This document shows positions 11,790 through 54,093 of a stretch of 62,863 bases of DNA, piece by piece. Positions within the stretch are counted from its first letter, which is position 1. Every line of letters begins with the position of its first letter. The stretch lies in contig CALNZI010000008.1 of NCBI GenBank assembly GCA_942491275.1, forward strand, positions 1 through 62,863, written 5' to 3'. The translations under genes were made by a program, and so were the position numbers. This stretch comes from Minisyncoccota bacterium (lineage in GTDB: Bacteria; Patescibacteriota; Minisyncoccia; Phycocordibacterales; UBA9973). The notes under the pieces were generated by a model. It saw nothing but the letters and a program-made list of their open reading frames with translations, searched no databases and had not been told where the DNA came from.

Positions 11790-11904
11790 ATTAAAACCCA
11801 AATAGCTCTTCTCTTCAGGCACGAAAATTTTCTGCTGAAAATTTTCTCAGTGTTCGCTCCGTCGAGCTCACAAGCCCTTCAGATAAGACTATTTGGGTTT
11901 TAAT
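11790..11904 (+). repeat. Dispersed structured repeat, copy A
   Basis: Core AATTTTC-TGCT-GAAAATT ... GCTC-CGTC-GAGC within a 16-bp IR (ATTAAAACCCAAATAG / CTATTTGGGTTTTAAT). Confidence 0.92.
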
Positions 11905-11943
11905 TTATTATTAGAGGCATATTAATAGGGTGTTTTTTATAGA

Positions 11944-13303: not shown

Positions 13304-13366
13304 ATTTGTTTGACGCCTTTAAATATTTGTGGTAATGTTAAAATAAATCTAAAAAAGGAGGTAAAT

Positions 13367-14059
13367 GTGAAAAATACAATTATGGGGTATATGTTTGATG
13401 CATGGCTCAAAGTTCAAGTCTTATTACCTAAGGTAGAGAGATGGAGTAAGTATCGGATAAGAAATCCCAAATTAAGAAAACAGACAGTTTTGCATCATCA
13501 ATATTCAGTCTGTTTAGCCATCATTCCTGTTCTATTTAAATTAAAGGAATTTAATTTGTCTTTGGATACCGAACTATTAAAAGATGCTTTTATGTTGCAT
13601 GATATTCCAGAAGGGCTTTTGAAACTCAGATATGATGTCTTGTCTGATGAAAAGGAAAATTATCATGATTTGGCAGAGTATGTAGCTTTTAGAAAATGTT
13701 TTGAAGAAGTAGACCCTTTAGTTTACGAACATTTAGAAAGGTCTTTTTTACTTCAGTTTGCAAACAAAACACAAGAGGAAATTAATTTTTTCCCACCTAG
13801 AGCAGTCAGGGTTATTAGTGTATTAAAGAAAAATAATCCTATCGAGGTAGCTTTGTTTCCAGCTCTTGAAAGTTGGGAGTACCTCTTTTATGCCTATGAG
13901 GGGTATAAAGATAAAAATGACTTTGTTATTTTTAAGGAAGTTTTAAATAAACAGCTTCCGTCTTTAAGATTATACTGTAATCAAATTAATGGTTTTAGAG
14001 AGGTTGTTTTTCCTGAAGTATTAGAGAAAGAGTTAATCTCAATTTCTAAACAAAATTAA
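13367..14059 (+). CDS. HD-domain phosphohydrolase-like protein (YfbR/5'-deoxynucleotidase-like)
   Basis: H...HD..E pattern (HHQYSV; MLHDIPEG). GTG start at 13367 follows an AAGGAGG SD. Own promoter: TTGACG 13310, 17 nt, TAATGT. Confidence 0.6.
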   Translation: MKNTIMGYMFDAWLKVQVLLPKVERWSKYRIRNPKLRKQTVLHHQYSVCLAIIPVLFKLKEFNLSLDTELLKDAFMLHDIPEGLLKLRYDVLSDEKENYHDLAEYVAFRKCFEEVDPLVYEHLERSFLLQFANKTQEEINFFPPRAVRVISVLKKNNPIEVALFPALESWEYLFYAYEGYKDKNDFVIFKEVLNKQLPSLRLYCNQINGFREVVFPEVLEKELISISKQN

Positions 14060-15723: not shown

Positions 15724-15840
15724 AAAATAAATTAAAACAACTCTTCTCTTCGGGTATAAAAATTTTCTGCTGAAAATTTTCTCAGTATTCGCTCCGTCGA
15801 GCTCATAAGCCCCTCAGATAAGATTATTTTAATTTATTTT
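15724..15840 (+). repeat. Dispersed structured repeat, copy B
   Basis: Same core as copy A; flanking 17-bp IR AAAATAAATTAAAACAA / TTATTTTAATTTATTTT (one mismatch). Confidence 0.92.
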
Positions 15841-15860
15841 GAATATTTAATAAAAATAAG

Positions 15861-18897: not shown

Positions 18898-19722
18898 ATG
18901 AATAACCAAAAAGACATACAAAAGACAGGGTTGAGTTCATACGGACAAAGTAATTTTGCGGGTACTAATGCATTGGTAAATAAACCTATTTACGAGTTTG
19001 CCAACAAAAAGACAGGGAAGCTAGTTACCGCCCTTTATATGGTCACAGATTGCATGGAAGTAAACGACGCTCTCCGTGAAAAACTACGTCTTTTAGGAGT
19101 TGAACTTTTGTCCGATATATACAAATTATCCACACTATTACCCATGGAAAATAGTACTCAAGTTGAGCTATCTCTAATTCGAATAAATGAGCTAATTTCC
19201 TTTATTGAAATTGCCGAGACTATAGGATATATATCTGAAATGAATACTAGTATTTTGAAGAGAGAATTTAATATATTGAGTGAAGAAATTAAAGCACATC
19301 AAACTAAGGATAATCATTTTCCATTTACACTGGATGATGAAATGTTCAAAACTCCAATAGAAAATAAAAGACAAGAAAATCTGTCTTTAAACAAGAACAA
19401 TAATAAAAGGACACCTTCTTTATTGTCTTTTACAAATAAAAGGACAGAAGGGAACAATGTCTCTAATAAAAAGGTTACTTCTATTGATTATAAAAAAATC
19501 AAATCTGACAGGGCAGAAAAGATTATTACTACTATAAAGGACAAACAAAAACTCCCAGGAGGGGAGAATGGAGCATCTATAAAAGACATTGCTTCTGTCG
19601 TTATTGATTGTTCAGAAAAGACCATTCAACGAGAACTAAACGATTTAATAGAAAAAGGCCAAGTTAAAAAAACAGGGGCAAAACGTTGGTCTAGATACCT
19701 ATTAATTGATACTAATATATAG
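18898..19722 (+). CDS. Hypothetical protein: N-terminal helical bundle, low-complexity linker, C-terminal winged HTH (DeoR-like)
   Basis: C-terminal SIKDIASVVIDCSEKTIQRELNDLIEKGQVKKTG..RWSRY is a wHTH pattern. Confidence 0.75.
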   Translation: MNNQKDIQKTGLSSYGQSNFAGTNALVNKPIYEFANKKTGKLVTALYMVTDCMEVNDALREKLRLLGVELLSDIYKLSTLLPMENSTQVELSLIRINELISFIEIAETIGYISEMNTSILKREFNILSEEIKAHQTKDNHFPFTLDDEMFKTPIENKRQENLSLNKNNNKRTPSLLSFTNKRTEGNNVSNKKVTSIDYKKIKSDRAEKIITTIKDKQKLPGGENGASIKDIASVVIDCSEKTIQRELNDLIEKGQVKKTGAKRWSRYLLIDTNI

Positions 19723-19727
19723 GGCAG

Positions 19728-19828
19728 AAAGAATAGCTCTCCTCTTCGGGCACGTAAATTTTCTGCTGAAAATTTTCTCAGTATTCGCTCCGTCGAGCTC
19801 ATAAGCCCCTCAGATGAGACTATTCTTT
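19728..19828 (+). repeat. Dispersed structured repeat, copy D
   Basis: Core nearly identical to copy B; 9-bp IR AAAGAATAG / CTATTCTTT. Confidence 0.92.
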
Positions 19829-20760
19829 TGACCTCTTTCATTTGTATTTTCCACCCCATTTTCTATCTATTTTTAGGGTTCAAAAATCACCATTTTTTGA
19901 CCCAAATTAAACCCTTAGTTATCCACACTTTTCTATATATCTATTGATTATTTATAGGCCACGGTATATAATACGTATACATATTATTATTGCTAGTGTA
20001 ATTGCACTAAATATGATAGTATATGTTGTCTGATATTATATTCATTTTTAATGGATATAAGTTGGATTGATCATTGAAAATTTAATAGCTAAAAATTATT
20101 AATACCAAATAATTTTTAGAAATATAATTTTAGTTCTTATTTTTTAAGAAGGTTTTATTTATAATTTTAACACCTTGTTTTAAAACTAGTTCTAAATTAT
20201 TTATTACTTTTCGATGGTTAGACACCGTAAAATTTTGAAGTAAAAATTTGAAATTATTTCTTCCGCTTAAAATTTTGTTTCCAATATTTGATACTCGTCC
20301 GTGATTTTTTTTGATAGAGAAAATTATTAGGAGAGAAAATATAAAAATAATTTTTTAAAAAGAAAAATAAAATTGAATTTATATTTTAATTTTTTATTTG
20401 GTATCGGCCCTGTCGACAAGGCAGATATGCTATTTGTTTTTCATTAAAATATTTTAATTTTTTTAGAAAATTTTAATGATTACATTTAGTAATGTTTATC
20501 AGTTTTTTTTCTAACTAATTTTTTCAGAATTTGGATTGTTGCTTGGCATATTTCTTTTGATAGAGAAGTAAGTAAGTCAGGAATAAAAAAAATAATGAAA
20601 TTATTATTTGGAATTTGTGTTCGTTCATATTAATCAATTAATTAATGTGAACAAAAATAATATACACACGCACATTAGTTTTTTTTGTGGATGCATCATT
20701 ATTAATAAGCATTCCATGAATTAGTCGAAATTAATTTAAAAGTGTATAGAATTATTAAAT

Positions 20761-22934: not shown

Positions 22935-22981
22935 TTTTGATTCTAACTCAAACGTCCGAACAATCCCCCAAATCCACCAAT

Positions 22982-23006
22982 TCTGCCAAGGACGGTCCTT
23001 GGCAGA
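22982..23006 (+). repeat. REP-like palindrome 1 (5' of RAYT)
   Basis: TCTGCCAAGGAC-G-GTCCTTGGCAGA. Confidence 0.9.
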
Positions 23007-23032
23007 TTTGAGCATTATGATATAATGGTTAT

Positions 23033-23704
23033 ATGTTACGTAAAGACCCATTTATAACAGGTCAATATTACCATATTTACAATAGGGGAATAGATAAACG
23101 TCTGATATTTAACTCAAAAAGTGATTATAAAAGATTTATTATACTTTTATATTTAACTAATTCTACTGGACCAACCAATATTCGTTACATATTAAAAAGA
23201 GATCATAAAAAATTTAATGAAATATTTCAAATAAATAGAGGTGATATGGTTGTTTCTATTGGGGCTTGGTGTTTGATGCCAAATCATTTTCATATATTAG
23301 TAAGACAAGAGAGTGATGGCGGAATAACTAAATTTATGAAAAAGTTATCCACAGGGTACTCTATGTATTTCAATAAAAAATACGAACGACAAGGGTCATT
23401 ATTTGGAGGAGTATTTAAATCTAAGTTAATTGGTGAAGATGATAATTATATGAGACAACTTTTTGCTTATATTCATTTAAATCCATTAGAAACTAATTTT
23501 CCAGATTGGGAAAATAATAAAAAAGAATTAAATCAAGCTGAAGTTCAAAATTTTTTAAATTTGTATGAATATTCTAGTTATCACGATTATCTCGGGGAGG
23601 GGAGAGAACAGAAAAATATATTAAACAAAACTGCATTCCCTGATTATTTTAATAATGATTCAACATCTTTTGTCGATTTTGTAGAAAATTATTTTAAAAC
23701 ATAA
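23033..23704 (+). mobile_element. REP-associated tyrosine transposase (RAYT/TnpA-REP, HUH Y1 family)
   Basis: YYHIYNRG, WCLMPNHFHIL (HUH), AYIHLNP (catalytic Tyr) and YSSY; flanked by inverted palindromes; TGATATAAT 6 nt upstream. Confidence 0.9.
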
Positions 23705-23705
23705 T

Positions 23706-23736
23706 AAAGTTGCCAAGGACCGTCCTTGGCAACTTT
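23706..23736 (-). repeat. REP-like palindrome 2 (3' of RAYT, inverted relative to REP 1)
   Basis: AAAGTTGCCAAGGAC-C-GTCCTTGGCAACTTT. Confidence 0.9.
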
Positions 23737-23802
23737 AGGAGTTATCCACAGTTTGAGAGTATTTTTTATGGAAATAAAAAATACAGATTATATAATTGAG
23801 GA

Positions 23803-24462
23803 ATGGAAAAAATAAAAAAAATATTTGCTCACAAAGTTTTTAAAATTATTTTTAAAATACTTAAGTGGGCTTTTTTAGTATTACTAGCTATTTATTTAAT
23901 TGTGGTAATTGTTAGAGTTTTTTATTTTATTAATTTAGACAAGACTAATGCGCAGGTTGAGAAGATTCATTCTACAAAAATTACGATGGACGACGTCATG
24001 GGAGTTAATTTACCACCCGACCCTGGAGCCGAAGCGGACAAAACTGTGGAGGGGGTTGATGTGAATGAGAATGGGATTCGAGATGATGTTGAATTGGCTA
24101 TTTTTGAAAAGTATTCTGATTCAGCAAAAACTCGGGCAGCGCTTTTGCAATATGCTTTAGCTCAACAAATGATGTTAACTCAACCTTTTGTTAATACAAC
24201 AATTGCGACGGAGGTGGTAAGAGAAGATAATAGAGCTCATTCTTGTATTGCCAATAAACTTGCCCCAAGAAAAACACCCGAATCTTTTAGAACGAATATA
24301 GAAATGGAAAAAATTAATAGTTATATTTCTTTTGTAGAAAATTTACAATTTAACACAGAAGAAAGAAAAGAAGTTCAAAATTCTTTTATTGAAAAATTGA
24401 GGAGTTATTCAAATTTAAGTATTGATGAGTGTGATATAGATTATTCTAAATTATCTAATTAA
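23803..24462 (+). CDS. Hypothetical membrane-anchored protein with a DxNxNG Ca-binding-like motif
   Basis: N-terminal TM; TVEGVDVNENGIRDDVE...KTRAALLQYA; two Cys. Confidence 0.75.
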   Translation: MEKIKKIFAHKVFKIIFKILKWAFLVLLAIYLIVVIVRVFYFINLDKTNAQVEKIHSTKITMDDVMGVNLPPDPGAEADKTVEGVDVNENGIRDDVELAIFEKYSDSAKTRAALLQYALAQQMMLTQPFVNTTIATEVVREDNRAHSCIANKLAPRKTPESFRTNIEMEKINSYISFVENLQFNTEERKEVQNSFIEKLRSYSNLSIDECDIDYSKLSN

Positions 24463-24470
24463 AAACAAAA

Positions 24471-27400
24471 ATGTTGTTAAAAAATATGAGAAATAAAATA
24501 ATATTTAGTTTAATATTTATTTTATTTTTTCTTTTTCAACATTCAGTTTTAGCGGAAGAGCTGTGTTCTTCCAATGGTTATTCTGTGATAACCATTAATG
24601 GTATGATAGCAGATTTAAACGATGCTAAAGCTAATAAGATTGCAATTGAAGATAAAGTTCCTCTTTATTACAATAATCAAAAAGTTACCGTCGACTACAT
24701 CCACAACGAAACTCATTTAGCTGGGCTGGGAGATTTATTTGATGCCATAAGACAGAAGCTTTCTAAAGAAGACTTTGTAGTTAATAGTTACGATTTGAAT
24801 AACATTCTGTTTGATTTGAGCGCTAAGCTTAAAACTCAGAAAGTTTTATTTATTCCTCATTCTCAGGGAAATTTTTATACCAATGACATATACAATAGAG
24901 TAGCTTCAAAAGAAGGAGGAACCCCCAAGGAATCTTTGGGAATTTATGGTATTGGTAGTCCAGCCAGTTATGTGGCTGGAGGTGGAAAATATATAACTTC
25001 TAGTAATGATAAAATAATTAACTTAGTTAGAAAAGCCGGCTGGTTTTTAAATGTTTTAGAACCGAATGTGGAGATTAATTCTCCAATTAATCCAGAAAAT
25101 TTATGGGGGCATAGTTTATCGTCGGTATATTTAAAATATGAGGGAGATAGAATTGCTTCAGAAATTAAAGAAGCTATTGATAAATTAAAAAATAATAAAA
25201 TACAAAATATTAATGAACCCTGTGTGTCTGCTCCAGAGTTAACAGTAGTTCATAAAATAAAAGATGTTTTTTATAGTGTAGCCGATCCTCTTTCTATTAA
25301 GACTAAAAATGTAGCGGTTCTTTTTTATAAAGTTGAGAAATTTATTGTTAATAAAGCAGGGGATATTGCCTCATCTATTGGTGGAACTTTAAAAAAATTA
25401 CTGGCTAGTGCCGGAGGAAGTTCTTTGGGCAATAACGAAGAATCAATTTTACCAACTGAAGCATCTGAGATGGAAGATCCCCAAGTACTTCCAGTTAATA
25501 GTGAATCTGAATTACAACTAGAACCAGTAGTTGAACCAGTTATACCTGAGGAAGAAAATACACCATCTGAATTAACCACGCCCGAGGAGATACCTCTATC
25601 CGCTTCGCTACCCGAGGAAACACCTCCGGCCTCTATAGAACCATTAGAAACAGAACTGGAAGAAGAGCCAATTTCTTCCGGACCTGTAATTCATGGTGGA
25701 GGAGGAAGTTCTTCAACTCCAGATACAACAGCTCCGATAATTTCTTTAATAGGGGAAAGTAATTTAGATGTTGAAAAAGATTCTGTTTATTACGATGCTG
25801 GAGCCACTGCCACCGATGACATCGATGGAGTGATTGATGTTGTTTCGGAAGGAGTTGTTGATACTTCAAATGTTGGAACTTATGCAATTATTTATACAGC
25901 AACAGATTCTTCAAATAATATTTCAACCTTAACTCGAACTATTAATGTTTTTATTCCTTTGTCAAGTTTAATTATTGATTCAGATACCACCTTATCCCCA
26001 GGAGAATATTTCTATGATAATTTAATAATTACTAATAATGCGACACTTACACTTCAAGGAGATCCACTTTCTACCGATTCTTTTAAGGGAGTAAAAATAA
26101 ATGCAAAAAATATTACCGTTGATGCTGGATCAGTAATTTCTGCCAATGGTCAAGGTTTTGTAATTGGACCAGGTACTCTTCTTGAAAATAATGCAGGAGG
26201 AAGTTATGGAGGAGACGGAGATCACAATATAAATTCATTAATTTATGGTTCTGCTAAGGAGCCCATTGATCTTGGTAGTGGGGGTTCTGGAGGAAAAAAT
26301 GGAGGAGGGGCTATTCGAATTATTATTGAAGAGACTTTTTTAAATAATGGGGTTGTTTCTGCAAATGGAGATCTTAATTCAAGTGGAGGAAGCCTCTATA
26401 TAACGACTAAAAATGTTACAGGCAGTGGAGCTTTTAAAGCAAATGGGGGAGGAATATTGTCTACTACAGTTGTAAATGCTTTGGGAGGAGGTGGGAGAGT
26501 CGCTATTTATTATGAGAACTCGACATTTAGTGGAAAAATAGAAGCAAAAGGTGGTTGTGGTCAGTATAATGGGATTACTTTGGTTTGTGCAGAAGCTGGG
26601 ACAGTTGGATTTTTTGATACTGTAAATAATAATCTTTTGATAAATACTTCTTGGCAATTTTTGAAAATAGATATCCCTTTTAATATTAATGAAATTAATA
26701 TTAAAGAAGGAGCAAAAGTATTATCAGAAAAAGATGTAGATATAACAGCAGGTAATTTTATTATTGATGAAGCTTCAACCTGGACTCTTTCTGGTGACGA
26801 AATAACTGATATTAATAGTTTAAATATTTTGGGAAATTCAATTATTACCATAGATCCAGAAGAAATACTTTCTTTAAAGGCTGGAAATCTTAGTATTGAA
26901 AATGGGTCATTGATTAAATCTGACGGGAAAGGCTATGTTAGTGGACCCGGTACACCGAATGTAAATTACGAGGCAGGGTCTAGTTATGGAGGTAAAGGGG
27001 GAGGAGCTAATGCTAAACCAATATATGGTTCTGCTTCTGAGCCTATTGATTTTGGAAGTGGAGCAGAGGCTAATCGTGGGGGTGGGGCAATTCATTTAAC
27101 TATTTCTGATACATTAATTAATAACGGAATTATTTCTGCCAATGGAAGTTCAGATCGTACCAGTGGAGGAAGTATATATATAGATTCAAATAAAGTAAAT
27201 GGAAGTGGAAGTTTCCAGGCAAATGGAGGTGGCAGTAGGTGGCCTTACGGATCCGTTGGAGGAGGAGGAAGAATTGCAATTCATTATCAAGATTCTACTT
27301 TTAGTGGAACATCGGACGTTTCTGGAGGTAAGTATTGTTATTCTGGTTGTAAATCATCAGGGGAAGATGGAACAGTAGAATTTGTTGATAAATCAATTGT

Positions 27401-28166
27401 TGTTCTCAGTTCTGAAAAACAAATTTCTTCTTTTGATTTTAAAATTTTAACACCAGAAGTTATTGGTCTTATTAATGAAGATGATCATACTATTTCTATG
27501 GCTGTACCTTTTGGGACAGAGGTGACAAATTTAGTTCCAATGATTTCTTTTTCAGATAAATCAACAGTGAATCCAAATTCGGAGGTGGCTCAAGATTTTA
27601 CAAATTCAATTATATATACAGTCACAGCTGAAGATAATTCAATACAAGAATACACAGTGAGTGTTGTTGTAGGAGCAGACCCAAGCCCTACCCCAGATCC
27701 TATTTTGGGTTGTATGGATTCTTCTTTCGATAATTATGATTCAACCGCAACGGAAGATACAGATCCAACTTTATGTGTTAATGATCCAGACCCTATCCCT
27801 GATCCCGTTGTGGACATAATTACACCTTCTATTACAAGTTATAGTTTAAATGGAATTTCTGGAGACATCACAGTTAATCCCTTGAGCAATCCCATGGTTA
27901 TAAATTTAAACTCCAGTGAAGATGTAAATTGGATGTCTGTAAAAATCGAAAATCAAGATAATTCAAGTTTTTATAAAATTTTCCAATCAGGAGCAGGTTG
28001 TGTGGATGGAACTAATACCTGTACAAAAACCTGGGATGGACTTCTTTCCAGCGGGGGATTACTAGATAGTGGAACATATAAGATTAAAGTACACATAAAA
28101 GATGCTGCAGATAATGAGTATTATGACTACCTACCGTCAATAATTACAGTTGAGATTCCAATTTAA
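24471..28166 (+). CDS. Large secreted multidomain protein: alpha/beta-hydrolase-like N-domain, Pro/Glu linker, Ig-like (DUF5011-type) domain, two Gly-rich modules, C-terminal Ig-like domains
   Basis: Signal peptide; PHSQGNFYTN nucleophile-elbow motif; DTTAPIISLIGE...DAGATATDDIDG...VGTYAIIYTATDSSNN; duplicated YGSA.EPID.GSG...GGGAI...GGGGR.AI modules. Confidence 0.8.
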   Translation: MLLKNMRNKIIFSLIFILFFLFQHSVLAEELCSSNGYSVITINGMIADLNDAKANKIAIEDKVPLYYNNQKVTVDYIHNETHLAGLGDLFDAIRQKLSKEDFVVNSYDLNNILFDLSAKLKTQKVLFIPHSQGNFYTNDIYNRVASKEGGTPKESLGIYGIGSPASYVAGGGKYITSSNDKIINLVRKAGWFLNVLEPNVEINSPINPENLWGHSLSSVYLKYEGDRIASEIKEAIDKLKNNKIQNINEPCVSAPELTVVHKIKDVFYSVADPLSIKTKNVAVLFYKVEKFIVNKAGDIASSIGGTLKKLLASAGGSSLGNNEESILPTEASEMEDPQVLPVNSESELQLEPVVEPVIPEEENTPSELTTPEEIPLSASLPEETPPASIEPLETELEEEPISSGPVIHGGGGSSSTPDTTAPIISLIGESNLDVEKDSVYYDAGATATDDIDGVIDVVSEGVVDTSNVGTYAIIYTATDSSNNISTLTRTINVFIPLSSLIIDSDTTLSPGEYFYDNLIITNNATLTLQGDPLSTDSFKGVKINAKNITVDAGSVISANGQGFVIGPGTLLENNAGGSYGGDGDHNINSLIYGSAKEPIDLGSGGSGGKNGGGAIRIIIEETFLNNGVVSANGDLNSSGGSLYITTKNVTGSGAFKANGGGILSTTVVNALGGGGRVAIYYENSTFSGKIEAKGGCGQYNGITLVCAEAGTVGFFDTVNNNLLINTSWQFLKIDIPFNINEINIKEGAKVLSEKDVDITAGNFIIDEASTWTLSGDEITDINSLNILGNSIITIDPEEILSLKAGNLSIENGSLIKSDGKGYVSGPGTPNVNYEAGSSYGGKGGGANAKPIYGSASEPIDFGSGAEANRGGGAIHLTISDTLINNGIISANGSSDRTSGGSIYIDSNKVNGSGSFQANGGGSRWPYGSVGGGGRIAIHYQDSTFSGTSDVSGGKYCYSGCKSSGEDGTVEFVDKSIVVLSSEKQISSFDFKILTPEVIGLINEDDHTISMAVPFGTEVTNLVPMISFSDKSTVNPNSEVAQDFTNSIIYTVTAEDNSIQEYTVSVVVGADPSPTPDPILGCMDSSFDNYDSTATEDTDPTLCVNDPDPIPDPVVDIITPSITSYSLNGISGDITVNPLSNPMVINLNSSEDVNWMSVKIENQDNSSFYKIFQSGAGCVDGTNTCTKTWDGLLSSGGLLDSGTYKIKVHIKDAADNEYYDYLPSIITVEIPI

Positions 28167-28173
28167 TTAGCTT

Positions 28174-28198
28174 TCTGCCAAGGACCGTCCTTGGCAGA
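28174..28198. repeat. REP-like palindrome 3 (8 nt after the large surface gene)
   Basis: TCTGCCAAGGAC-C-GTCCTTGGCAGA followed by TTTGAG, as for REP 1. Confidence 0.9.
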
Positions 28199-28318
28199 TT
28201 TGAGGTTTATTTTATAGAGCTGTCTAGGCGGTCAATATTGAAAAAATATTCAAAAAATTTTTATATTATTTTGGGATAATGAGTGGAAAATCTTGGCTTT
28301 TTGTGGTATAATAGGTGT

Positions 28319-28414
28319 ATGATCAATAAACATTCAATTAAGGTCATTCTTGCTTTTACTACCGTTGTTGTGTTGGGCTTGATTCTCCTGGTTGTTATTG
28401 ACGGATTTAAGTAA
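28319..28414 (+). CDS. Small single-TM protein (31 aa), not in the ORF track
   Basis: MINKHSIKVILAFTTVVVLGLILLVVIDGFK*; TGGTATAAT (28304-28312) lies exactly 6 nt upstream of the ATG. Confidence 0.6.
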   Translation: MINKHSIKVILAFTTVVVLGLILLVVIDGFK

Positions 28415-28554: not shown

Positions 28555-29043
28555 ATGCCGATTACATTAAACAAAAAGAAAGAACTTGTGGCTGGCTTGG
28601 AAAAGTCAATTAAAAGTTCAAATTCAGTTGTTTTTGTGAAGTTTGATAAGTTGTCAGTGGAAAATGCAAACGTACTTCGTCGTAAATTACAAAGCCAAGA
28701 AGTTGGCTACGTGGTTTCGAAGAAGACTCTTTTGAAAAGAGCTCTTGATTCTCAAAAGTTCGAAGGTGACCTTCCAGAAATTCCTGGACAGATTGCCATC
28801 GCCTACGGAGATGATTTAATTGCTCCGTCTCGAGAGATTTTTGATTTTGCAAAAACTCACAAAGAAAGCATTAAGATTGTTGGGGGAGTGTTTGAAGGAA
28901 AGTACATGAACGCTGAAGAAATGATGTCCATTGCTACTATTCCTCCATTACAAACTCTACGTGGAATGTTTGTCAACATTATCAATTCACCGATTCAAAG
29001 ATTTGCTGTTGTGTTAGATCAAATCGCACAGGCAAAAGCTTAG
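28555..29043 (+). CDS. rplJ: 50S ribosomal protein L10
   Basis: LRRKL...VSKKTLLKRAL and LATIPP-like IATIPPLQTLRGMFV; precedes rplL. Confidence 0.96.
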   Translation: MPITLNKKKELVAGLEKSIKSSNSVVFVKFDKLSVENANVLRRKLQSQEVGYVVSKKTLLKRALDSQKFEGDLPEIPGQIAIAYGDDLIAPSREIFDFAKTHKESIKIVGGVFEGKYMNAEEMMSIATIPPLQTLRGMFVNIINSPIQRFAVVLDQIAQAKA

Positions 29044-29072
29044 GAATTTACTAATTAATAAAATATAAAATT

Positions 29073-29549
29073 ATGTCAGAAGAAACAAAAAAAGAAGAAG
29101 TAGTTGCTACTCCAGAAGTTGCTGCTACCGAAGAAAAGAAAGAAGTCAAAGCAGAAGCTGAGACTAAAGAAGTTGCAGTTCCTGCAAAATTCAAGAAACT
29201 TGTTGAAGAAGTTGAAACAATGTCAGTTATTGAATTACACGAACTTGTAAAAGTTTTAGAAGAAAAATTCGGAGTTTCAGCTGCTGCTGCAGTTGCTGGA
29301 CCAGCTGCTGCTGCCGGAGGAGAAGAAGCAGAAGAAAAAAGTGCTTTCACCGTTGAACTTACTTCAGCAGGGGAACAGAAGATTGCTGTTATGAAAGTAG
29401 TTAAAGAAGTTCTTGCTCTTGGACTAAAAGAAGCTAAAGATTTAGTTGATGGAGCTCCTGGAGTTCTAAAGGAAGGAGTTAAGAAAGAAGAAGCAGAAGA
29501 AATGAAGAAGAAAATAGAAGAGGCTGGTGGTAGTGTTACTTTAAAATAA
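29073..29549 (+). CDS. rplL: 50S ribosomal protein L7/L12 with an acidic N-terminal extension
   Basis: [23 protein letters not shown] and [14 protein letters not shown]. Confidence 0.98.
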
Positions 29550-31145: not shown

Positions 31146-31456
31146 ACTGCCTACGATGTTAATAAATAAAAACCAGTTGAAAATGCGGAAAAAGTAAAAC
31201 TTTCTTAGTTTTCCTTTGTCCGTCATTAAGACGGATTTTTTATTTGTTAGACAAGACATTGAAGATGATATTTGAAAACTGAATGCTGTTCCAACTCACT
31301 GTTATCCTTTAATTTTTTAAGGGTCTTTTGTATCGAGTTGGAAACAGAGTGTGATAATAAAAATTATTATTAGATCGGAAGCGGTTCTGAATGATAATAA
31401 TAAAGTCTGATTCTTTATCTGGAGAGAGAAAGATGATGATGGTTTTCAAATTTCCT

Positions 31457-34955
<3,499 letters not shown>

Positions 34956-35075
34956 AGGAAATATGAAAATCATCCCAGTAGTAGAGCATAGCTCACTACG
35001 GGATCAATTATTGTCACACTTTAGCATTCAGTTTTCAGATATTATCTATCTGAGTAGTGTTCATTGAATTTTTTG

Positions 35076-42832: not shown

Positions 42833-44557
42833 ATGAAACCTGAAACTAGAAATTGCCAGAATTGTAAAAAAGACTTCGTTATTGAAGTTGATGATTTTTC
42901 TTTTTATGAGAAAATCAAGGTTCCTCCTCCTACTTTTTGTCCGGGATGTCGTATGCAAAGGAGATTAAACTTTAGAAATGAAAGGTCTTTATATAAGAAA
43001 GAATGCAATCATTGCAAAAAAATGGTTATTTCTGTTTATCCAAAAGAAAGCTCGGTAATAGTTTTTTGCCAGGATTGCTGGTGGGAAGATTTCTGGGACC
43101 CTTTTTCTTTTGGAAGTGAGTATGATTTTTCAAAACCATTTTTTGAACAATTTGAAAATTTATATGCAAAAGTTCCACAGATAAGTTTATTTAATACTAA
43201 ACCTTTAAATTCAGATTATTGTAATTTTGCAGCAGAAAATAAAAACTCCTATCTCTTCTTTGGAGGAAAGGGGAATGACGGAGTTTTATATTCCCACAAC
43301 TCATCTTTTTCCAAGGATTCTTTAGATGTCTCTATATCAGGCAAATTAGAACTTTGTTATGAAGATATTCAATGTGATAATTCAAATCGTCTCTTTTTTA
43401 GTAAAGATTGTGATAATTGTGTAGATTCTTATTTTCTTTATGATTGCAAAAATTGCATAAATTGTTTTGGTTGTACTAATTTAAGGAATAAACAATATTG
43501 TTTATTTAATAAACAGCTTGGGAGAGAAGAATATTTAAAGAGTATTGAAAGTTTAAACCTAGGTAGTTTTTCTTCTGTGGCGGAGGTCAAAAAAGAGTTT
43601 CAGAATTTATACAATAAGGCTGTTCATAGATTTTCTCATTTCATAAATACAGAAAATTGTACGGGAGATAATATTAGAAATTCTAAAAATTGTAAGAATT
43701 GTTTTTATATGCTGGGTTCCGATTCTGAAAATAATAAATATTCTGCTCATTCAGTTGTCGGAATGAAAGATAGTTATGATAATTATGGATCAGCAAAAGC
43801 AGAATTAGTTTATGAAACAATAGCAATTGGGTTTGAGTCTAACGAAAATTATGATTATAAATTTAGTTTTTTTATTAGAAGTAGTAGTGATATTTCTTAT
43901 TCTATAAATTGTACTGGATCCATGCACCTCTTCGCCTGCATCGGCCTCCGAAACAAAAGTTATTGTATTCTTAACAAACAATACACCAAAGAACAATACG
44001 AAGAATTGGTCCCCAAGATAATACAACACATGAACGACATGCCATACATAGATAGTAAGGGAAGAGTATATAAATACGGAGAGTTCTTTCCATCAGAACT
44101 ATCACCATTTGCCTACAATGAAACAATAGCTCAAGAATATTTCCCATTAACAAAGGAACAAGCTCTAGAACAAGGATATAGATGGAAAGATAAGGAAGAA
44201 CGTAATTACACCATTGATATCAAGAATCAAGACATTCCCGATGATATAAAAGACGTAAACACTGACATACTAGGTAAAGTTATAGAATGTGCACATAAAG
44301 ACTGTAATCATCAATGCACTGAAGCTTTCAAGATAATACCCGAAGAACTACAGTTCTACCAAAGAATGAACTTACCCCTACCACGTCTATGTCCCAACTG
44401 TAGACATTATGAAAGACTAAACCAACGTAATCCAATGAAACTATGGCACCGATCCTGTATGAAAGAAGGATGTACCAACACCTTTCAAACATCATACTCC
44501 CCAGACAGACCAGAGATAGTATATTGTGAAGAGTGTTATCAAAAGGAGGTGTATTAA
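42833..44557 (+). CDS. Cys-rich protein with zinc-ribbon CxxC pairs and C/S/N-rich beta-helix-like repeats
   Basis: CQNC, CPGC, CNHC, CQDC at the N-terminus; CDNCVDSYFLYDCKNCINCFGC repeats; CPNC and CEEC at the C-terminus. Confidence 0.8.
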   Translation: MKPETRNCQNCKKDFVIEVDDFSFYEKIKVPPPTFCPGCRMQRRLNFRNERSLYKKECNHCKKMVISVYPKESSVIVFCQDCWWEDFWDPFSFGSEYDFSKPFFEQFENLYAKVPQISLFNTKPLNSDYCNFAAENKNSYLFFGGKGNDGVLYSHNSSFSKDSLDVSISGKLELCYEDIQCDNSNRLFFSKDCDNCVDSYFLYDCKNCINCFGCTNLRNKQYCLFNKQLGREEYLKSIESLNLGSFSSVAEVKKEFQNLYNKAVHRFSHFINTENCTGDNIRNSKNCKNCFYMLGSDSENNKYSAHSVVGMKDSYDNYGSAKAELVYETIAIGFESNENYDYKFSFFIRSSSDISYSINCTGSMHLFACIGLRNKSYCILNKQYTKEQYEELVPKIIQHMNDMPYIDSKGRVYKYGEFFPSELSPFAYNETIAQEYFPLTKEQALEQGYRWKDKEERNYTIDIKNQDIPDDIKDVNTDILGKVIECAHKDCNHQCTEAFKIIPEELQFYQRMNLPLPRLCPNCRHYERLNQRNPMKLWHRSCMKEGCTNTFQTSYSPDRPEIVYCEECYQKEVY

Positions 44558-44559
44558 AT

Positions 44560-44584
44560 TCTGCCAAGGACGGTCCTTGGTAAG
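44560..44584 (+). repeat. REP-like palindrome 4 (2 nt after the stop of the Cys-rich gene)
   Basis: TCTGCCAAGGAC-G-GTCCTTGGTAAG, then AAACGTCCGAA (44585-44595), also found at 22950-22960 near REP 1. Confidence 0.88.
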
Positions 44585-44621
44585 AAACGTCCGAATCAAG
44601 ATGAGGTGTTATAATTAAAAA

Positions 44622-53974: not shown

Positions 53975-54093
53975 AAAAAATATTAAAAATAGCTCTTCTC
54001 TAAATGCACACATAATTTTCTGCTGAAAATTTGATCTGCTCGGGCCGTCGCCCTGCGCAAGGCATCTCTTGAAGACTATTTTTAATATTTTTT
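53975..54093 (+). repeat. Dispersed structured repeat, copy F (between convergent gyrB and thrS)
   Basis: AATTTTC-TGCT-GAAAATT and GGGC-CGTC-GCCC; perfect 18-bp IR AAAAAATATTAAAAATAG / CTATTTTTAATATTTTTT. Confidence 0.92.

Follow-up and report, generated by a model that had tools for sequence, protein, structure and literature searches.

The stretch of DNA analysed here, referred to below as the window, is the 62,863-nt contig CALNZI010000008.1 of a Minisyncoccota bacterium (assembly GCA_942491275.1). The locus of interest contains a gene for a predicted REP-associated tyrosine transposase (RAYT), several copies of a repetitive extragenic palindromic (REP) sequence, and an operon of two genes for predicted surface proteins that lies between two of the palindromes (Table 1). 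Nearly all work on RAYT/REP systems has concerned Proteobacteria, and the reason for which they are retained by their hosts is a long-standing question. The literature search found no paper linking RAYTs with the phylum represented here, and candidate phyla have no occurrences in Quentin et al. 2018 (PMC6006769). An original prediction made from the letters of the window alone had proposed that the REPs delimit a movable or exchangeable module of surface genes. The present analysis extends RAYT/REP identification to a phylum-level clade, and its outcome for the cargo claim is mostly negative. Loci around RAYT homologues were drawn for comparison from metagenomes and from GTDB species representatives, and are denoted by L numbers where they must be told apart.

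Table 1. Features of the locus and of the related site downstream, in window positions
Feature	Position	Strand	Remarks
Type-C REP half-site AACGTCCGAA	22951..22960	+	Cognate hairpin type of the L194 RAYT
REP1, 25-nt perfect palindrome (12 bp), loop G	22982..23006		Upstream of RAYT
RAYT promoter-like site	22999..23026	+	-35 TTGGCA is the REP1 3' arm; 16-nt spacer; TG-extended TATAAT; 11/12 matches, best in region
Predicted RAYT-type Y1 HUH enzyme, 223 aa	23033..23704	+	HUH at H85/H87 (PNHFHIL); catalytic Tyr Y146 (YIHLNP)
REP2, 33-nt perfect palindrome (16-bp stem), loop C	23705..23737		Touches RAYT stop codon
AGTTATCCACA motif	23741..23751	+	Identical to DnaA-box consensus; downstream of RAYT
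Promoter-like site of the 219-aa/1231-aa operon, TGGAAA-16-TATAAT	23769..23796	+	Kept whichever cargo comes next
219-aa protein, N-terminal membrane anchor	23803..24462	+	Conserved Paceibacterota family of unknown function
1231-aa surface protein	24471..28166	+	Signal/anchor, cutinase/lipase-like serine hydrolase, Ig-like, glycine-rich repeats, DUF5018 Ig-like
REP3, palindrome 28174-28198 (12 bp), loop C, plus flank	28174..28216		Flank copies REP1 flank
31-aa hydrophobic small ORF	28319..28414	+	Common to L001 and L004 (L004 gene 32 aa)
rplJ-rplL	28555..29549	+	Conserved right anchor of slot
REP4, one mismatch	44563..44581		5 nt past stop (44557) of 574-aa ORF
Type-C REP right arm plus flank ACGTCCGAATCAAG	44586..44599	+	Directly 3' of REP4; 14/14 identical to flank of the REP downstream of the L194 RAYT

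The RAYT enzyme and its palindromes

The 223-amino acid (aa) product of the RAYT gene carries the two histidines of the HUH (histidine-hydrophobic-histidine) motif and the single catalytic tyrosine expected of a Y1 enzyme, and it matches the Pfam family Y1_Tnp (PF01797) with E = 3e-10. Its best-scoring family is the NCBIfam RAYT model REP_Tyr_transpos (NF047646), at 38.7 bits against a cut-off of 80, and the NCBIfam IS200 model gives 16.4 bits against a cut-off of 55. A phmmer search of the PDB with the single RAYT sequence gave no match, so that a family profile was required; an exact-sequence look-up of the protein found no record. The profile, built from an alignment of 31 homologues in which H85, H87, Y146 and N150 are unchanged throughout, has the E. 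coli TnpA-REP structure 4ER8 as its best match in the PDB (E = 5.9e-5), with ISDra2 TnpA behind it (E = 6e-3). The family has more than 7900 database matches, the best 120 of which, at 62-73% identity, carry the names Nomurabacteria, Paceibacterota or Parcubacteria, and a scan of genome contigs with the window RAYT found relatives at identities of up to 66%. The protein ends in a C-terminal YSSY extension, which constitutes a serine motif after the catalytic tyrosine, and its gene is present once in the 63 kb of the window, with no tnpB neighbour. The open reading frame (ORF) at 23033-23704 is thus predicted to be an intact RAYT-type Y1 HUH enzyme that is nearer to E. coli TnpA-REP than to the IS200 transposases, and since the HUH and tyrosine residues are invariant across so large a family, nuclease/ligase activity has probably been retained.

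The palindrome TCTGCCAAGGAC-S-GTCCTTGGCAGA is present at 22982-23006, 23705-23737 and 28174-28198, where the original prediction had placed it, and its core GCCAAGGAC-N-GTCCTTGGC is exact at 22985-23003 (loop G), 23712-23730 (loop C) and 28177-28195 (loop C); the core did not occur in any of 100 dinucleotide-preserving shuffles of the window. A fourth copy of the core, not included in that prediction, lies at 44563-44581, with loop G and one mismatch. Folded as single-stranded DNA, REP1 to REP4 have energies of -13.4, -15.9, -12.0 and -7.5 kcal/mol, with z-scores of -3.7 to -9.3. REP1 ends 27 nt before the RAYT ATG, and REP3 starts 7 nt past the stop codon (28166) of the 1231-aa gene. The flank GATTTGAG that had been noticed in common between REP1 and REP3 is indeed present, as part of a longer stretch of 44 nt that is 89% identical between the two. 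The RAYT gene is flanked by REPs as had been stated, but the inverted orientation ascribed to this pair is weakly founded, because REP2 is otherwise a perfect palindrome and only the loop base (G in REP1, C in REP2) differs.

All four REPs of the window are singlets rather than the inverted doublets of REPINs (REP doublets forming hairpins), and doublet or long-hairpin forms are confined to the relatives L002, L014, L019 and L030. The sequences adjoining them (5' flanks AATTC and AAAGT, 3' flanks GATTT and ACTTT) do not contain the GT[AG]G (or CGTC) foot of canonical REPs. Two further interpretations of the palindromes were tried and rejected: an IS608-like left-end and right-end geometry read from the loop base is inconsistent among the window, L004 and L085, and canonical intrinsic terminators are contradicted by the absence of a T-tract and of any REP among the predicted terminators of the + strand. 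When metagenomes were scanned for the REP core, 106 matching stretches were obtained, nearly all of them on high-GC contigs unrelated to the window and probably matched by chance; among the 80 loci derived from these stretches, only L102, L116 and L124 carry RAYT homologues.

The evidence that couples the palindromes to the enzyme comes from the comparison between lineages. The same palindrome lies within about 130 nt on both sides of the gene in 26 of 32 Patescibacteria RAYT loci, and its stem varies between lineages with the pairing kept (TTGCGCAAGGAC-W-GTCCTTGCGCAA, TAAGCAAGAAC-C-GTTCTTGCTTA, TTAGCTAGAAC-W-GTTCTAGCTAA, ATCAAGGCC-S-GGCCTTGAT and TGTCGGATACC-A-GGTATCCGACA), around a CAAGG/CCTTG stem core that is kept widely among them. 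Double compensatory changes are found at 9/9 stem pairs, and 95.9% of the alignment cells are paired, a figure that is partly circular because the sequences were chosen for being palindromes; two L044 rows that were misregistered by MAFFT (alignment A5) were counted as unpaired, which leaves the conclusion unaffected. Independent support for the coupling is provided by the copies themselves, since those upstream and downstream match within each locus and the lineages differ. A gene flanked by cognate hairpins is the defining arrangement of the REPtron for TnpA-REP (PMC6006769), and the presence of a co-varying flanking palindrome in so many loci therefore argues for a real RAYT/REP (REPtron) system. 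The comparison supports the palindromes as the putative cognate REPs of the RAYT, and together with the HUH motifs and the 4ER8 match it upholds the assignment of the gene that had been made beforehand.

Over the 26 loci, REP copies thin out steeply with distance from the RAYT: the first 150 nt hold 7.2 per kb, the interval of 150-1000 nt holds 0.33, that of 1-3 kb 0.10 and that of 3-6 kb 0.039, and there are none between 6 and 10 kb. Two kinds of local accumulation were also observed, for which it is necessary to distinguish type A, to which the window RAYT belongs, from type C, which is that of L194. Just upstream of the RAYT in L001 (L001:7350-9970) there are 12 REP copies in composite units of about 470 or 1,100 nt, each comprising three type-A REPs together with three hairpins, one terminator-like, one of the sequence TACCCCCTAGG and one of the type-C REP. 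In many sister clades a cognate REP lies in frame within the RAYT ORF itself (L085:376-418, L086:7157-7183, L087:9492-9516 and L194:1108-1150, and also L021, L022, L029, L035, L040, L041 and L047, about 160-175 nt into the ORF). These copies are translated, for example as SPTPGVG, VGYLVSD or SRHSVST, and fall within a variable loop, with the ORFs intact; the type-A RAYT of the window does not contain one.

The upstream REP is also positioned at the putative promoter. In the window and its type-A relatives, the 3' arm of this REP (TTGGCA, TTGCGC or TTGCTT) occupies the -35 position and the -10 box ends 6-7 nt before the RAYT ATG, and the distance from the REP centre to the ATG is 39-41 nt in seven loci. 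Because the ATG of the window gene is 7 nt past the -10 box, the RAYT mRNA would be leaderless, and the geometry as a whole suggests a REP-overlapped promoter with autoregulation.

The slot upstream of rplJ and its surface-protein genes

The RAYT occupies a fixed chromosomal position. In about 15 loci the order is recA(-), a 131-aa gene(-), ftsK(-), a 274-aa gene, a variable segment, the RAYT, a second variable segment, rplJ, rplL, a 206-aa gene and MscS. In the window, the 31-aa ORF upstream of rplJ is followed by a conserved, structured-looking sequence, as it is in L001 and L004. The second variable segment in the window is the pair of genes at 23803-28166, which is situated between REP2 and REP3 in agreement with the original coordinates.

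The smaller protein of the pair has 1400 homologues. The larger protein has an N-terminal domain with an invariant GHSQG (129-133), an invariant His214 and several invariant Asp residues, from which a catalytic triad may be assigned. The AlphaFold model of this domain is confident at residues 33-240, and among PDB folds it comes nearest to cutinases and small lipases, with modest scores. A surface-anchored serine esterase/lipase that carries immunoglobulin-like (Ig-like) domains is the most likely identity of the protein. Its gene contains an internal duplication of about 780 nt (26240-26452 against 27020-27232) in glycine-rich repeat units, and the L085 orthologue is 1513 aa long with its blocks rearranged; the protein seems to evolve through repeat expansion.

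In six contexts beyond L004 (L085, a JGI contig without DNA, L086, L087, L194 and L196) the 219-aa gene is likewise followed by a large Ig-like gene, and in the four of the six that reach far enough, the small ORF and then rplJ-rplL follow downstream. For both the 219-aa and the Ig-like protein, identity broadly follows host relatedness, as vertical descent predicts. The presence of a REP after the large gene varies: the window has one, L004 has its own REP 4 nt past the stop codon together with a second copy, L085 has a REP of a different type 49 nt past the stop, and L086 and L087 have none. Four of the six REP copies that lie more than 3 kb from a RAYT sit right after orthologues of the 1231-aa gene, in three genomes and with two RAYT types. 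On this comparison of gene order the pair is a conserved resident operon at a fixed slot and would not be cargo defined by REPs. The proposal that the REPs are borders of a movable cargo is accordingly not sustained, since the gene pair is syntenic upstream of rplJ-rplL whether it is followed by another REP, as in L085, or by none; its conservation in L086 and L087 with no REP after it is an arrangement that the original prediction had itself named as evidence to the contrary.

The content of the slot does differ among close relatives. L001 and L002, whose RAYTs are 70-73% identical to that of the window, carry a beta-helix/LCAT-lipase protein where the window has the 219-aa/1231-aa operon, and L001 is closer to the window than L004 is, as judged by L10, L12, the 206-aa protein and MscS. 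A beta-helix/LCAT-type protein also follows the RAYT in L014, L018, L019, L023, L031 and L067, the Ig-like/lipase plus 219-aa cargo is found in the window, L004, L085, L194 and L196, and both cargo types occur in distant lineages as well. The window, L001, L002 and L004 differ in cargo and yet have the REP, the AGTTATCCACA motif and a TTTACA/TATAAT promoter conserved as far as the start codon, so that the left breakpoint lies at or near the first start codon of the cargo and not at REP2, where an exchange of REP-bounded modules had been expected to leave it. At the other end, the window and L001 become homologous again just past REP3, but L001 has no REP at this right junction. In favour of exchangeable surface genes there remain a slot with two alternative large surface proteins and a REP after the Ig-like gene in three genomes; the movable module itself is not supported.

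The RAYT/REP module next to the operon has a different history. Judged by L10 (83%), the closest host is L085, whose 219-aa protein is 73% identical to that of the window; its RAYT, however, has only 46% identity with the window RAYT, against 60% with the RAYTs of the distant L086 and L087. L196, with a 219-aa protein at 71%, has the second (type-B) RAYT, as in L085, with its own REP. L194 has the closest 219-aa protein (76%), yet it carries a third RAYT type, flanked by the hairpin ATTCGGACGT-NNN-ACGTCCGAAT, full copies of which are also present in the L001 arrays. The half-site near REP1 and the right arm beside REP4 (Table 1) are relics of this type C that the window retains. Among close relatives the slot holds three predicted RAYT types, with as many types of REP; RAYT type and host are not always in step, so that replacement or sorting of paralogues also occurs. 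The surface operon is the stable part of the locus, and the neighbouring RAYT/REP module the part that is replaced or sorted among paralogues.

The AGTTATCCACA motif that follows the RAYT is invariant in the window, L001, L002 and L004, present in L085 and L194, and found with one mismatch in L196. The DnaA-box consensus TTATCCACA occurs 6 times in the window against 0.71 expected (at 19126, 19919, 23345, 23742, 30214 and 42147, all on the + strand, that at 23345 being coding), and a rough estimate from composition gives an enrichment of about 8-fold over the Patescibacteria loci, where most copies lie on the gene strand. The same syntenic sites carry it repeatedly: one follows the RAYT, another the 274-aa gene, and a third lies where the 206-aa gene ends. 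A replication origin was considered for these boxes and rejected, since the GC skew is positive on both sides and dips only at minus-strand genes; TTATCCACA looks like a promoter-associated motif.

Origin of the bracketing arrangement

The reading that we consider probable is that the locus is a REPtron, in which a domesticated and chromosomally fixed RAYT of a Patescibacteria-specific clade is accompanied by its cognate REPs, and in which the bracketing of the operon is a by-product of REP seeding. The RAYT would bind and cut the folded REP on single-stranded DNA, and the copies that it seeds would go mostly in cis to permissive spacers close by, immediately 3' of stop codons. REP3 would be a local copy of REP1 and its flank; with no more than 8 nt between the two operon genes, it would have landed in the first spacer of any size downstream. 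Local seeding beside a conserved operon would make the bracketing a by-product and not the boundary of a transposable cargo. Use of the REP1 3' arm as the -35 element of a leaderless promoter would in addition permit autorepression of the RAYT, and REPs at the 3' ends of genes may stabilise or terminate the upstream transcripts.

Several observations weigh against this reading. The RAYT scores below the cut-off of the NCBIfam model for its own family, the REPs have no GT[AG]G foot, just 2 REP copies in 63 kb are located away from the RAYT, and the cleavage of REPs by the enzyme is deduced from sequence. The distribution of the copies is also not fully predicted by local spill-over, since a REP stands right after the Ig-like gene in 3 of the 4 genomes in which RAYT and operon are adjacent, with three different REP sequences, and loci with the LCAT-type cargo mostly have no REP after the big gene. 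The REP after the Ig-like gene may reflect seeding into the first permissive spacer, inheritance with homogenisation, selection for a 3' hairpin or a role in cargo exchange; the by-product reading is ranked first, above exchange.

A more far-reaching proposition, which must be regarded as doubtful, is that the RAYT/REP module marks and helps to drive a recombination hotspot beside rplJ, at which the RAYT/REP type, of which close relatives have at least three, and the lipase surface protein are repeatedly replaced and REPs are re-seeded at the 3' end of the operon. If this were true, a domesticated transposase would act as a diversifier of the host-interaction surface proteins of episymbiotic Patescibacteria.

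The exchange of a REP-bounded cassette, in which RAYT cleavage or recombination at REP2, REP3 or the conserved flanks would swap surface cargos, is unlikely. In its favour, alternative cargos occupy the slot between RAYT and rplJ among close relatives, and both types are present in distant lineages too; the same pattern would, however, result if both cargos had once stood in tandem and one or the other had since been lost. The restart of homology with L001 just past REP3, the REPs that the window, L004 and L085 have behind the Ig-like gene, and the REP doublet after the L002 cargo are as this mechanism would have them. Against it, the right junction of L001 has no REP, the operon of L086 and L087 lacks one at its 3' end, and some 70-90 nt, including the conserved motif and promoter, separate REP2 from the left breakpoint. 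The loop-base orientation of the bracketing REPs varies between genomes, and the identities of the two surface proteins are broadly in line with the relatedness of their hosts, as vertical descent would have it.

It is slightly less likely again that the palindromes are chiefly transcriptional, as an operator at the RAYT promoter and as terminating or stabilising hairpins at 3' ends, with the Y1 protein as a DNA-binding regulator that has ceased to mobilise anything. The placement of REP2, REP3 and REP4 at 0-7 nt past stop codons with no other terminator near, the coincidence of the REP1 arm with the -35 of the best promoter match, the uniform spacing from REP to ATG in seven loci and the very low copy number would all be in keeping with such a role. 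A protein reduced to regulation is nevertheless hard to reconcile with HUH and tyrosine residues that are invariant in the whole family, terminators with the missing T-tract, and the loss of mobilisation with the 12-copy arrays of L001 and with REPs inserted in RAYT ORFs and beside REPs of other types, which indicate copying activity.

An active insertion sequence (IS) of the IS200/IS605 type, consisting of REP1-RAYT-REP2, or of REP1 to REP3 with passenger genes, would possess a Y1 transposase with subterminal hairpins on both sides and could explain the extended flank that REP1 and REP3 have in common, but it is highly improbable, given the single copy in 63 kb without tnpB, the same syntenic position in lineages whose RAYTs are only 35-73% identical, the higher scores of RAYT models than of IS200 models for the family, and the status of the supposed passengers as conserved residents.

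Host context and comparison with known systems

The wider window fits a Patescibacteria host in its enlarged 23S rRNA match and in the lack of a recognisable L1 gene after rplK. The 23S rRNA match (31456-34958) covers 3503 nt against a model of 2925 positions, which leaves about 580 nt extra (an insertion or intron), and a LAGLIDADG ORF is present at the far end of the relative L087. The ORF at 13310-14059 after rplK, in the place expected for rplA, has no Pfam match, and rplJ-rplL is 14.5 kb away from the rplK region, with efp, recA, ftsK, the RAYT and the surface operon between. Another intergenic repeat, about 105 nt long and with 81-84% identity, occurs at 11800-11912, 15735-15847 and 19731-19843, and partially at 53987-54054; it has a highly conserved core AATTTTCTGCTGAAAATTTTCTCAGT...CGCTCCGTCGAGCTC and matches no Rfam family at gathering score. 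The 574-aa ORF before REP4 (42833-44557) has no Pfam or NCBIfam match, and several partial DNA matches to it on single metagenome contigs (L120, L141) suggest a multi-copy gene family. The ORF at 1340-2188 contains long runs of 15-45-nt repeats coding for Pro, Glu and Thr (PEPPTEEPT-like) at 1712-2195.

Among known systems, E. coli TnpA-REP (RayT/YafM; 4ER8; PMC3479197, PMC6006769) resembles the one in the window in being a single-copy Y1 HUH enzyme with a Y---NP motif and cognate hairpins on both sides, in having extra REPs in intergenic spacers at the 3' ends of genes, and in not transposing as a unit. In the window, by contrast with E. coli, the GT[AG]G foot is missing, the REP is a perfect palindrome of 25-33 nt around a CAAGG/CCTTG core, there are four copies clustered near the RAYT in 63 kb instead of hundreds dispersed, and the enzyme, of 223 aa with a C-terminal YSSY extension, falls under the NCBIfam cut-off. 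The RAYT/REPIN systems of Pseudomonas (Bertels & Rainey, PMC3116915; Bertels et al. 2017, PMC5581495) are like the one described here in their vertical inheritance, their single-copy, housekeeping-like character, the co-evolution of RAYT and repeat and the existence of several types, whereas their repeats are inverted doublets and not singlets, and their RAYT types coexist at different loci rather than replacing each other at one. TnpA-Y1 subclass 2.6, class 3 (with atypical flanks) and 2.1/TIRYT (with none found) of PMC6006769, which were compared by description, share with the window RAYT a serine motif after the catalytic tyrosine (here YSSY) and flanking hairpins without GTAG.

The IS200/IS605 elements (IS608, ISDra2) use the same Y1 HUH chemistry on hairpins of single-stranded DNA, and the segment that they move lies between a left and a right hairpin; the window RAYT is by contrast fixed in position, single-copy and without tnpB, and matches them less well in sequence. 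O-antigen and capsule replacement islands place alternative surface-structure genes of related strains in one slot between conserved flanks, an analogy that is limited here to the behaviour of the slot, with which tandem ancestry and loss are also compatible.

The genome of a Patescibacteria host is of roughly the 1-Mb class, and the RAYT clade described here would be a very large and conserved one within the smallest and most streamlined of bacterial genomes, with few REPs, nearly all of which lie within a few kb. Such a minimal fixed-locus system, in which enzyme and hairpin have been swapped naturally, is well suited to reading specificity from covariation, to testing action in cis, and to the question of why these enzymes are retained.

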